Shown here: positions 4,965 to 54,104 of the stretch, one piece after another
Numbering within the stretch: the stretch's first letter is position 1
How the letters are laid out: each line of letters begins with the position of its first letter
Position numbers and translations under genes: made by a program
IMG/VR virus record: IMGVR_UViG_2721755651_000007
From: a virus
Taxonomy: Duplodnaviria > Heunggongvirae > Uroviricota > Caudoviricetes
Reading direction: 5' to 3' (one strand)
DNA: 64,000 nucleotides
The notes under the pieces: model-generated
What the model saw: only the letters and a program-made list of their open reading frames with translations
What the model was told of the DNA's origin: nothing
The model's database searches: none

Positions 4965-5276
4965 TTATGCTTCAGCCTTATTTCGCAACCAGACACAAAC
5001 CGGGCCATCTTCCGTATCATGAATGGAACCAATAAACCAGCCATCGCCCTCTGGTCGTTCCGGTTCCCATGCAGAAATATCAGCATCACACGCATCAAGG
5101 TCAGCACATCCTTCATCTCTGAAGCAGAGGACGTATTGAAGATTATTTTCCTCCATCCAGGCGTTAAACTCTTCCGTTGAAATATATTCCCGACCATCAC
5201 AGAATTTTTCATATTCAGGATGTGTCCAGTAGCCATATCCGTCACGAACTACCGGCATTTCTTTAATTTCACTCAC
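4965..5276 (-). CDS. acidic hypothetical phage protein
   Basis: 103 aa ORF, Cys/Asp/Glu rich; no family recognised. Confidence 0.4.
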   Translation of the reverse strand: MSEIKEMPVVRDGYGYWTHPEYEKFCDGREYISTEEFNAWMEENNLQYVLCFRDEGCADLDACDADISAWEPERPEGDGWFIGSIHDTEDGPVCVWLRNKAEA

Positions 5277-5496
5277 TGTTAACCTCCTGCAACGCTACAC
5301 GATACGCCTTCTTTATCCACGCCTTACTGCCATATAATTTCGTCTTCATAATAAACACACCTGCACGACTCGCCGATATCCCCGGACAGGTTAACAGCAC
5401 AGCATCCACCACACGGTTATGCTTCCGAAACTCCATTACAGTACTGCTGATAACCACCTGCCCCACCGGGCCGTAATCCTGATACAGGATTTTCAC
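5269..5496 (-). CDS. hypothetical protein
   Basis: 75 aa ORF, GTG start overlapping stop of IS-disrupted upstream gene. Confidence 0.35.
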   Translation of the reverse strand: MKILYQDYGPVGQVVISSTVMEFRKHNRVVDAVLLTCPGISASRAGVFIMKTKLYGSKAWIKKAYRVALQEVNSE

Positions 5497-5598
5497 GCAG
5501 ACACCCTCCTGTCGAAATAAACGTAGTTATTCACTATGCGCAGCGGCATGCCTAATTGAACCGCCCCGGGTTTCCTGGAGAGTGTTTTATCTGTGAAC

Positions 5599-6489
5599 TC
5601 AGGCTGCCAGATCATCGTTTCCGATGGAAGCATAATAAGCTTTTTCTGCTTCTGCCGGAGGAGTATGGCCCAGCCTTCCCAGCAATCGTCGATTGTTATA
5701 CCAGTCCACCCACGTTAGTGTGGCCAGTTCCACTTCTGCACGGTTTTTCCAGCTCTTACGGTGTATTACCTCCGCTTTGTAAAGACCATTGATGCTCTCA
5801 GCCATCGCGTTGTCATACGAGTCGCCTGTACTCCCTGTTGATGCCAGTAATCCGGCTTCTTTTAGTCGCTCCGTATAGGCCAGTGACACATACTGAGAGC
5901 CTTTATCGCTGTGATGGATGGTGCCAGACGGACGACGGGCCCACAACGCCTGCTCCAGCGCATCCAGCACGAATGTCGTTTCCATAGACGATGAGACCCG
6001 CCACCCCACGATGTATCCGGCAAACACATCAATGATAAACGCCACATAGACGAAGCCCTGCCATGTGCTGACGTAAGTAAAATCAGCCACCCACAGCTGG
6101 TCAGGTCGTTCTGCCACGAACTGACGGTTTACGCGGTCGCCTGCGGCAACGGCTTTCCGGCTGATGGTCGTACGGACCTTTTTACCCCGGAGAACACCGG
6201 CAAGTCCCATAACCGCCATGAGACGTGCCACTGTACATCTGGCCACCCTGATTCCTTCCCGTAACAACTGACGCCAGACTTTACGCACACCGTACACCTG
6301 ATGATTTTCATCGTATACGCGCTGTATCTCTCTCTTCAGCCAGTCGTCGTGCTGCGCACGGGCACTGCGTTTATCCGGATGATGTCGCTGTTGCTGACAA
6401 TGGTAATACGTTGACGGGGCAATATGCAGTTCGCTGCATACCGGTCCGACCCCGTACTGCTCACGCAGCTTATCCAGCAGTGGCATCAT
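5599..6489 (-). CDS. IS3-family transposase OrfB (DDE integrase domain)
   Basis: 296 aa; WVADFTYV...HSDKGSQY...YDNAMAES motifs. Confidence 0.9.
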
Positions 6490-6812
6490 TTTTTCCAGAG
6501 GCGGTCGAACTCCGCCTTCGCAAAATAAGCGGAAGCCTGGCGAAGGATATCGTTACTGCGGCGCAGTTCACGATTTTCACGTTCCAGCTCTTTCAGACGC
6601 TGACGTTCAGCGCTGGTGAGCCCACCATCACCGCCCCCGGTATCCCGCTCATGCTGGCGAACCCAGACACGCAGAGTCTCCGGCGTACAGCCAATCTTTG
6701 GGGCAATGGAACAAATTGCCGCCCACTGTGAGTCATATTCATCCTGACTTTCCAGAACCATACGAATCGCCCGCTGACGGACTTCGGGGGAAAAACGAGT
6801 ATTTTTAGTCAT
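6486..6812 (-). CDS. IS3-family transposase OrfA (HTH)
   Basis: 108 aa; overlaps orfB as expected for -1 frameshift fusion. Confidence 0.9.
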
Positions 6813-6866
6813 CCTGTTTACCTCTTTCTCAGGGAGTTTAGTCTCCAGGATTTCCGGGGCGGTTCA

Positions 6867-7087
6867 AATTTTCTGGCAATTTCCCTTCTTTGCATGCCTC
6901 TCTGATGCAGTTGCCGCGCCAGCTCAATATCACGCTGAGAATATTTTGCCGACGGGTGAAAATCACCACGTAACATCATGCTGATGCCCAGCTCCCGTGC
7001 CTTCGTTCTCACTGCCGCTTCAGTTCGTCCGATAAGTGCGCCAACGCTTTTTACCTTCATCGTTCCCGCACACTGCCGGAGTATCAT
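6867..7087 (-). pseudogene. small HTH-like gene interrupted by the IS insertion (3' end at 5497..5556)
   Basis: Frame MKVKSVGALIGRTEAAVRTKARELGI...REIARK runs into IS end; joining flanks across the target duplication restores an ORF ending just before 5496. Confidence 0.5.
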
Positions 7088-7119
7088 GATTTCCGCCCGG
7101 CACCACGTCTTCCACCCAC

Positions 7120-7854
7120 TCACCGCTGCTGTTCTCTGGTGGCGGTAATATCCCGGAGAATATCCCGGCACTTGTTCAGCTCCCGCAGCGCGGCGCAGAC
7201 TCGCTCCCACTTCTGAACCTGACCTTTTGCCCGGCGCAGCTCGCGGTTAGCCACATGCAGCGATGGTAAAATCAGACCATCCGGATGCTTTCTGGTGAAC
7301 GACGGCTGTGACTGCACTGTGACCGCCACACTTTCCGTTTTTATTTCTTCCTGTGTTTCCGCTTCCCCGACTGGTAACGCAACACCTGCTGGCTGAGGAA
7401 AGGCTTTACCATCCGTTTCCGTTATGGATGCGGCTTTCGGCTCTGCCGGTAAATCAGCGCCCGGTATGCAGTACCGAAATTTACCGCCCTGATTCACGCG
7501 AATCAGACGCCCTTTGCTGATTGCCATGGCCAGTGATGAATTCGCCCGGCGGGAGGTAATCCCGAACATCAGTGCCAGCTCATCCGCCGTTTGTGGGCCA
7601 TGATGTTCAATCGCCTCAGTCAGCATTTGCGCTGTCACTTTCGGTACCGGTGACACTGGTTCACTTTCACCAGTCTGAGTCAGCCACCACATCGACCCCT
7701 TGTTATCCGCTTCACCACGGCGCTTCAGTTTCCACAGTTCGTTGACAGCATCTTCGCGGCTGATTCCAAGGCGCGATGCCACTACCTGTGAAGAGGCTTT
7801 TTTCAGTGCTTTCAGTGCGTCAAATACGGTTTCCATTAATATTTCCTCCGACAA
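7120..7854 (-). CDS. conserved prophage hypothetical protein downstream of P (DUF1627-like by recollection)
   Basis: 244 aa; paralog 54105..54686. Confidence 0.45.
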
Positions 7855-52486: not shown

Positions 52487-53245
52487 TCAAGTGCCTTTCC
52501 TGGTCCAGCCATATTTTTTGAATGCAGGCGCCGCTTCATCGGTTTGTAGCCATTCTGCAAATCGACGGGTTTCATCATTTGCATCCTGACGTACTGTAAT
52601 GTTCATATCACGCCATATCACGTAGTCTGGCGCTATTTCCACGACATCACCAATTTCTGGATTACTGGCTGCCCAGTCAGCCCAGGTTATCCAGACATCT
52701 GCTCCAGGCTGATTCTCAAGAGCCTTACGTGCAGTTCCGCTATTGGGCGCATATAAAATAATATTTTTTCGGATTGCGGCGACAGTTTCTATATTCCCTT
52801 TACGTCCGGCAATATCTTCCCAGACGCCAGTGCCTGATGTATTACTGGTACCACCACCATCATTAACAATTACGCCAATCCCAGGTCTGGTCAGGTCGTC
52901 AATACTCCGGATATTTTTAGGATTACCTTTCTTTACCAGTAAAATACTTTTTCGCAGATAAAGAGGCTGAATATCTTTTTCACTGAAGCTGTCTTTATGG
53001 TCCCGAATGATAGCCAGAGCAGATTGTTCTGATGCGCCAAACAAGATATCTGCATTTTTTTTGGCATCTTCATTCCATTTGTTCTGTGGGCCGTAATGAA
53101 CGTTCACTATAATACCTGTTTTTTCGGCATAAAGTTTGGCTGCATCAAGCAAGGCTGTATGCGGGCCACCAGGACCATACAGATTGATATCAGCATAAGC
53201 AGCAGAAGACAGGAATATTAAAAAACCTGCCATTATGTTCCTCAT
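52487..53245 (-). CDS. orphan ModA/WtpA-like periplasmic anion-binding protein, prophage cargo
   Basis: Signal peptide; PBP type II pattern resembling ModA (...ADILFGASEQ..., ...AAPAFKKYGW...); no adjacent permease/ATPase. Confidence 0.5.
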   Translation of the reverse strand: MRNIMAGFLIFLSSAAYADINLYGPGGPHTALLDAAKLYAEKTGIIVNVHYGPQNKWNEDAKKNADILFGASEQSALAIIRDHKDSFSEKDIQPLYLRKSILLVKKGNPKNIRSIDDLTRPGIGVIVNDGGGTSNTSGTGVWEDIAGRKGNIETVAAIRKNIILYAPNSGTARKALENQPGADVWITWADWAASNPEIGDVVEIAPDYVIWRDMNITVRQDANDETRRFAEWLQTDEAAPAFKKYGWTRKGT

Positions 53246-54104
53246 AAAAAACTCCTTTTATTGGTTATCATGAAATAAAGTTATAAACACTACAAATAAT
53301 ATATATTACATCCAGATAAACTTATCCGACTTTACCTCGTGCATAGCTTGTTATTTAAAGTCAACAAAATAAGGAAAATTATACGCATATTGAAGAGTAT
53401 AAACCTTACATGTTGATTACATTTTTGTAATCAACATCCTGTTTGGAATAGCCAGCCTTTAATGGATAACTATTTCTGACAATGCAATGAGTATAATCAA
53501 GTCCATCTTCCACTGAGAATTAGAGGCGGCATGCTTTTTCCGGCTCTTGCCGGATATCCGTAATTGTCCATAATCTGCAGATTTATACCTTCTGCATGAC
53601 CTGTCAGCGAAAATTTGTCCGGTGTTTCTACGGGAATGACATCAAAAGTTACACGCACTCGCGTTACCGTGTAGACCTACTTTCCTGCACTTGCAAGATC
53701 ACAGTGGTGTAACCGTAACAGGAATTTATTCTCTGGACCGGCAGTAAATCCCTGAGTGGCGTGGTTCCCATATCAATTTCCCGCCAGGCAGCCTCCATTG
53801 CCAGCGTACAGGCTGGAGCCATGACCTGCCCTTTAAATCTGGCCCGACCATCCCACCGGACGTGTTCTTCTCCCCTGAACTTAGGTACAGTCATCTCCAG
53901 TGGCACAAAAGTGTCAGCGCCATAATTTTTGACCGTTATCGCGCTACGGATATTTTGTTGACTGGTGAAAATCACCCCGCAGAATCAGGCTTATTCCCTT
54001 AACCTGGGCTTTCATCCTGACCGCCGCCTCACTACGACCAATCAGACTGCCGATGCATTTTACCTTCATTGTTAGTATCATGATTTCAGGCCTGCACCAT
54101 CCGC

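Follow-up and report, generated by a model that had tools for sequence, protein, structure and literature searches.

A complete IS629/IS1203-type element, probably a recent and neutral arrival, within a small predicted two-HTH gene of a prophage in Escherichia coli O157 strain 319

The DNA analysed here, a 64-kb stretch referred to throughout as the window, is the reverse complement of positions 1752283-1816282 of NZ_CP018241.1, with 0 mismatches, and belongs to the chromosome of E. coli strain 319 (CP018241). Strain 319 is a human O157 isolate from the UK that was subjected to long-read sequencing by Shaaban et al. (PMC5359411). Two tandem lambdoid prophages are found in the window: prophage A occupies positions 1 to ~14930 and extends past the window start, and prophage B covers positions ~19200 to 64000. 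The locus described in this work is part of prophage A and of its rightward early operon, which is located on the minus strand of the window and shows the gene order cro, ydaT, an O-like gene with a DnaT domain, P, a DUF1627 gene, a small gene that will be called the HTH gene, and a series of small genes similar to those of a nin region. According to the RefSeq annotation, the integrase of prophage A is partial (14379-14930) and its RecE is truncated (13153-13954), and on these two grounds prophage A is considered defective.

The HTH gene is divided into two parts by an insertion sequence, both on the minus strand. The 5' part, corresponding to codons 1-85 if counted from a probable GTG start codon at 7123, lies at 6870..7123 and is annotated in RefSeq as a CDS (WP_072640384.1), while the 3' remnant, comprising codons 86-105 and the stop codon, lies at 5493..5556 and is annotated as a pseudogene ("DNA-binding protein, missing N-terminus"). 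Upstream, the DUF1627 gene (7120..7854, minus strand; Pfam PF07789, 5.8e-79) ends with a TGA that overlaps the probable GTG of the HTH gene. Downstream, a gene of 75 aa (5269..5496, minus strand), which matches phrog_1001 (function unknown) and has its own Shine-Dalgarno sequence (AGGAGG, 8 nt upstream), begins with a GTG (5496-5494) that overlaps the TGA of the HTH gene (5495-5493). An earlier note on this DNA, based on the letters alone, had located an interrupted small gene at 5497-7087 and had proposed that the stop codon of the restored gene overlaps the next start. The gene is indeed there and the overlap is the GTGA at 5493-5496, so that the 3' end has to be moved from 5497 to 5493.

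The inserted element is a complete IS of 1310 bp (5557..6866, minus strand), oriented as the interrupted gene and the operon. Its anatomy can be read directly from the DNA. The ends are TGAACCGCCCCGG... and ...CCGGGGCGGTTCA, of the TG...CA type; the terminal inverted repeats, IRL on the orfA side (6842..6866) and IRR on the orfB side (5557..5581), match at 22 of the first 25 terminal bases, and a repeat finder returned 26-nt arms with 88% complementarity. The first reading frame, orfA (6486..6812, minus strand), encodes 108 aa with an HTH_Tnp_1 domain (Pfam PF01527, E 2.4e-12) and covers the N-terminal part of the NCBIfam transpos_IS3 model. The second, orfB (5599..6489, minus strand), encodes 296 aa with a DDE integrase core (rve, PF00665, 9.3e-28), an HTH_21 domain (3.7e-18) and a match to NCBIfam NF033516 transpos_IS3 at 2.9e-94 (316 bits vs a cut-off of 160). 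The 3' end of orfA reads TGG AAA AAA TGA, containing an A6 slippery run, orfB lies in the -1 frame, and the transposase is labelled "programmed frameshift" in RefSeq; from its sequence, orfB would be expressed as an OrfAB fusion through a -1 frameshift at TGG AAA AAA TGA. A frameshift-stimulating pseudoknot of the ALIL type is predicted at 6415..6531 (minus strand), across the junction of orfA and orfB; the Rfam model RF01497 is matched over its full length (1-117) at 121.5 bits, the gathering score being 50. All the hallmarks of the IS3 family are therefore present, namely an orfA with HTH and an orfB with DDE domain, a slippery site followed up by a structure, TG...CA repeats and a target duplication of 3-4 bp.

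Copies with 100% identity to the element over all 1310 bp occur in many E. coli genomes, and the best match to it is at least 99% in 1230 records. These copies are named "IS3-like element IS1203 family transposase" in RefSeq, and the O111:H- strain 11128 encodes an identical transposase (WP_171877072.1). IS1203 is an isoform of IS629 (PMC3271280). From the transposase profiles and the full identity to RefSeq IS1203-family copies, the element can be classified as an IS3-family member of the IS629/IS1203 type, in agreement with the description as a 1310-bp "IS3-family, IS629-like" sequence given beforehand. When compared with IS629/IS1203 of Shigella and of Shiga-toxin-producing E. coli, it shares the same 1310 bp, ends, ORFs, frameshift, ALIL and 3-bp duplication; the element itself shows no difference, and the insertion site alone is new, being found in strain 319 only among the collections searched. 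It is the single IS629/IS1203 copy of the 64-kb window, and a location within a prophage is typical for IS629 (PMC3271280).

On both sides of the element the trinucleotide AAT is found, at 5554..5556 and at 6867..6869, and a single AAT is present in the empty site elsewhere, as expected for the 3-bp duplication that had been suggested; an example of a k-mer across the joint between IS and flank is GCGGCATGCCTAAT followed by TGAACCGCCCCGGG. The insertion was then undone in silico by removing the IS and one AAT, and a query of 517 nt across the resulting joint was compared with complete E. coli genomes. The excised 517 nt are identical (100%) to the uninterrupted locus in all genomes among the matches listed, with 500 records at 99% identity or higher and 526 records containing most of the query. 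The restored minus-strand frame is continuous, without any internal stop codon, and the uninterrupted locus is annotated as a "DNA-binding protein" of 93 aa (WP_000603384.1) placed between DUF1627 and a hypothetical gene of 75 aa. The excision thus reproduces exactly a widespread allele. The proposal that the IS splits an ORF has consequently been borne out by the excision and translation put forward as its test: the flanks rejoin into a known intact allele carried by hundreds of genomes, and neither stop codons in the restored frame nor flanks lacking an uninterrupted homolog, the two outcomes that would have spoken against it, were encountered.

The true length of the restored protein requires some discussion. 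Three candidate start codons are available, i.e., an ATG at 7060 giving 84 aa, the ATG at 7087 chosen by RefSeq giving 93 aa, and the GTG at 7123 giving 105 aa. The stop-free small protein anticipated in the earlier note is confirmed, and its length of ~85 aa, which corresponds to the internal ATG 7060 (84 aa), is to be replaced by 93 aa as annotated and probably by 105 aa. About 25 of 39 homolog clusters, including the most divergent ones (53-58% identity), start further upstream with a conserved W-x-R-A-E-I segment. The same segment is in frame behind GTG 7123, 36 nt upstream of the RefSeq ATG, and this GTG overlaps the TGA of DUF1627 as GTGA; moreover, 105-112 aa is the length of the homologs encoded by phage D6, Vibrio phage F89 and Serratia phage Parlo. 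A product of 105 aa from GTG 7123 is most likely because of the upstream starts of the homologs, the in-frame segment behind the overlapping GTG and the length of the phage homologs. In the AlphaFold model, W-x-R-A-E-I constitutes most of helix 1, and the RefSeq start is probably too short, removing half of the first helix.

From a structural perspective, the alignment-based AlphaFold model of the 105-aa form (mean pLDDT 79.8) consists of two three-helix bundles, formed by helices 9-18, 24-31 and 35-45 and by helices 63-74, 79-86 and 90-104, joined by a linker of low confidence; domain 1 (helices 9-45) reaches a pLDDT of about 88-91. The two HTH-like segments noticed in the translation thus find a counterpart in the two tri-helical HTH domains of the predicted structure. 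In the model, domain 1 resembles the DNA-binding domain of GcrA/Myb and domain 2 is of the resolvase/sigma region 4 type. Over the whole chain, Foldseek finds its best matches in two-HTH domains, namely the Tc3 transposase (1u78), Myb R2R3, the AraC DNA-binding domain and Cbp1 (2lvs), which have in common with the HTH protein the plan of two tri-helical HTH units plus a linker; the matches are weak (E >= 0.05, TM about 0.35) and do not amount to membership of these families at the sequence level.

Pfam searches with the HTH protein gave matches below threshold, and in the C-terminal half only, with HTH_7 at 21.9 bits (gathering threshold 23.8), HTH_23 at 18.4 (24.6) and Sigma70_r4_2 at 16.9 (25.7). 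A weak match of Sigma70_r4_2 in the C-terminal half was found in 38 of 39 homologs (best E 2.7e-07), and many homologs carry precomputed matches to PF13384/PF08281. The GcrA model (PF07750) was unmatched at E <= 0.1 in the HTH protein and in 38 close homologs, and for this reason the HTH protein is not regarded as a member of the GcrA family; with respect to GcrA (PDB 5yiu; PF07750), it lacks the part of GcrA that lies beyond the DNA-binding domain and possesses a second HTH instead. Among phage families, phrog_323 ("transcriptional regulator, D5-like") matches residues 2-92 of the 93-aa form (E 5e-23, 83.1 bits), although the alignment involves positions 156-248 only of a profile of 319 positions and "regulator" is an annotation label; phrog_30109 matches the N-terminal segment alone (2e-16). 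A profile search retrieved 1,720 cluster representatives at E <= 1e-3, including many forms of 150-180 aa as well as long proteins of 300-950 aa (P0117, P0138 and others) with 5-11 tandem matches, in which Pfam recognizes arrays of HTH, Myb and GcrA-like units. In phage records the HTH protein is labelled hypothetical, and the distant homologs of phage D6, Vibrio phage F89 and Serratia phage Parlo have small hypothetical neighbours that give no functional clue. DNA binding is the probable function of the HTH protein.

Two further leads on the family were discarded. A sequence search of the PDB returned TPR proteins of the Pins/LGN type (E down to 2.8e-07), which were regarded as spurious since the score is the sum of weak stretches, each with an i-Evalue >10. 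Furthermore, DUF1627 proteins of 238-241 aa, products of the adjacent gene, fall in the same 90%-identity cluster as the 93-aa HTH protein. Their sequences are plain DUF1627 and bear no relation to it, and the grouping is an artefact of the clustering, presumably with a read-through gene call as the bridge.

When the insertion is placed on the model, it separates K85 from L86, where helix 2 of the second HTH ends. The present ORF, starting from GTG 7123, is made of 85 native residues and 16 IS-encoded residues (101 aa) and ends at a TAA (6820-6818); the RefSeq version of this fusion, WP_072640384.1, has 89 aa from ATG 7087. The recognition helix of the second HTH is encoded by the 3' remnant (5493-5556), as are Y98, F99 and R101, which are invariant in the family and lie beyond the insertion point, and the GcrA/Myb-like N-terminal domain is untouched by the IS. 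On the basis of the model, the second domain would be expected to lose DNA binding.

Prophage B carries a counterpart of the gene at the same position. Directly after the DUF1627 gene of prophage B, a remnant of 54 aa (WP_001505071.1; 53944..54108, minus strand) contains the first domain only, shows 69% identity to the prophage A protein over 45 aa, has a deletion of 6 aa in helix 1 and bears a TAG where A has CAG, so that the truncated and different version foreseen in the earlier note is a diverged remnant. At the DNA level, A and B are homologous (78% over about 2 kb) as far as 6928 in A and 53937 in B, at about codon 65, within the linker. Prophage B continues from 53937 with a pseudogene of a fimbrial protein (53406-53939) and the gene of the paa adhesin (52487-53245), so that in B a cargo cassette made of these two has replaced the second HTH domain. 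The 54-aa allele, which is old and common, is found on at least 1000 contigs and is present in the "PPompW" prophages of other STEC.

The distribution of the IS-bearing allele is quite different from that of the intact one. A 140-nt query across the left junction was covered in one of 5,426 complete E. coli genomes, that of strain 319, and the IS-fusion protein was found on a single contig (CP018241) among ~15 billion proteins, vs at least 999 contigs for the intact 93-aa allele. The rarity of the junction, the identity of the flanks to the empty site, the perfect duplication and the identity of the IS to other copies all argue for a transposition that appears recent and strain-specific. In O157:H7, 62% of the IS629 copies reside in prophages, at sites that are strain-specific and show no hot spot at the sequence level (PMC3271280), and the prophages of the strain set to which strain 319 belongs are enriched in IS elements (PMC5359411). 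The insertion could in principle be reversible, because IEE promotes the excision of IS629 in EHEC (PMC9943667, PMC9397093).

Two possible sources of further insertions were considered and rejected. A recurrent targeting of the HTH gene was suggested by O111:H8 and O145:H28 genomes, which cover most of a 2-kb query, but the HTH gene is intact in them. Likewise, draft assemblies broken at the IS might have been represented by two N-terminally truncated "partial" proteins (P0028, 73 aa; P0070, 55 aa), which proved to be unrelated contig ends. In O111:H- 11128 and O145:H28 16003, IS629/IS1203 truncates the neighbouring DUF1627 gene or the gene of a DnaC-like ATPase; in other STEC lineages, the prophage early region takes IS insertions repeatedly, at different sites.

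The best explanation as a whole, to which we assign a probability of about 0.93, is a recent, strain-specific and probably neutral insertion of IS629/IS1203 in a two-HTH gene. An intact element would have transposed into codon 85/86 of the small prophage A gene, with duplication of AAT, thereby depriving the C-terminal HTH of its third helix, the recognition helix, and leaving a product of 85 + 16 residues. Transposition in the IS3 family is of the copy-out/paste-in type and occurs via a circular intermediate, a route that would have been followed here as well. Selective neutrality is the most likely outcome, because the host prophage was already degraded and the tandem prophage has lost the same C-terminal domain long ago.

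A different consequence of the same event has to be considered, i.e., that the insertion generates a working shortened protein, rather than a null allele, in which the GcrA/Myb-like domain alone keeps the same or a modified role. RefSeq still labels the fused ORF as a DNA-binding protein, and this was counted against the reading as a null allele; moreover, domain 1 is left whole (pLDDT about 88-91), phrog_30109 covers the N-terminal segment by itself, and an allele restricted to domain 1 persists on at least 1000 contigs. This very allele, however, looks as if it were decaying, given the deletion in helix 1 and the in-frame TAG, while the part removed by the IS includes the invariant Y98, F99 and R101 and the 16 foreign residues at the C-terminus may destabilise the product, so that a functional short form appears unlikely. 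An adaptive insertion, which would lock down or modify the early operon by polarity on the downstream nin-like genes, by a promoter at the IS end (outward-reading or hybrid) or by the loss of a regulator, and would have been favoured by selection, is highly improbable. The IS is co-oriented with the operon and directly upstream of a translationally coupled gene, and the effects of IS629 on prophage genes have been discussed for this strain set (PMC5359411), but the downstream gene has a Shine-Dalgarno sequence of its own and prophage A was defective in any case. A crude scan of positions 5200-7300 detected 0 promoter-like and 2 terminator-like sites vs a shuffle expectation of 1.7 and 1.8, that is, no promoter-like site and a shuffle-level number of terminators, and is uninformative as to polarity. 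The occurrence in 1 of 5,426 genomes gives no sign of spread or recurrence, and the IS copies of O111 and O145 are in neighbouring genes instead. Finally, the position of the IS might be an artefact of the long-read assembly, in which a repeat copy would have been put in the wrong place, since ~19 places in strain 319 match the IS end and repeats can confuse assemblers; yet a perfect 3-bp duplication with flanks that join exactly into the empty site is the signature of a true transposition, and long reads easily span 1.3 kb (PMC5359411), which makes this explanation scarcely credible.

As regards the meaning of the insertion, it is an ordinary event, already annotated in RefSeq for the genome of strain 319. 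Insertions of IS629 into the prophages of O157 are amply documented and serve for strain typing, and the junction described here represents a marker unique to strain 319. The intact protein, a two-HTH phage protein of wide distribution that is as yet unstudied, has a natural truncation allele in strain 319, and the start annotated in RefSeq for this gene family deserves attention, since 105 aa fits the family better than 93 aa. GcrA is a reader of DNA methylation. It is conceivable, albeit very unlikely, that the HTH gene belongs to a large and so far uncharacterised family of phage early proteins, that of the 1,720 cluster representatives, with a GcrA/Myb-like and a sigma-r4-like HTH, and encodes a real regulator of the lambdoid early/late program that reads, for example, methylation. 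If it were a true regulator, a natural knockout would be available in strain 319, where both tandem prophages are without the second domain.

A few other features of the window may be recorded. At the junction between the two prophages (15400-19058), the RefSeq annotation shows nested IS elements: a complete ISEc8 of the IS66 family, consisting of tnpA (16313-16693), tnpB (16690-17037) and the transposase gene (17087-18625), interrupts a transposase pseudogene of the IS256 family, whose two pieces lie at 15400-16218 and 18663-19058. Structural genes of prophage B are damaged within 23252-36432, where the portal gene (33911-36432) has a frameshift and an internal stop, gpJ (23252-26730) is frameshifted and a truncation affects the minor tail protein L. 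Cargo encoding type III effectors is located at the tail-fibre end of this prophage (19208-20921), namely nleG7 (19208-19858) and a pseudogene of NleG that contains an internal stop (20568-20921). In the same prophage, the genes of tRNA-Arg (47290-47366) and tRNA-Ile (47447-47522) adjoin a DNA methyltransferase gene.
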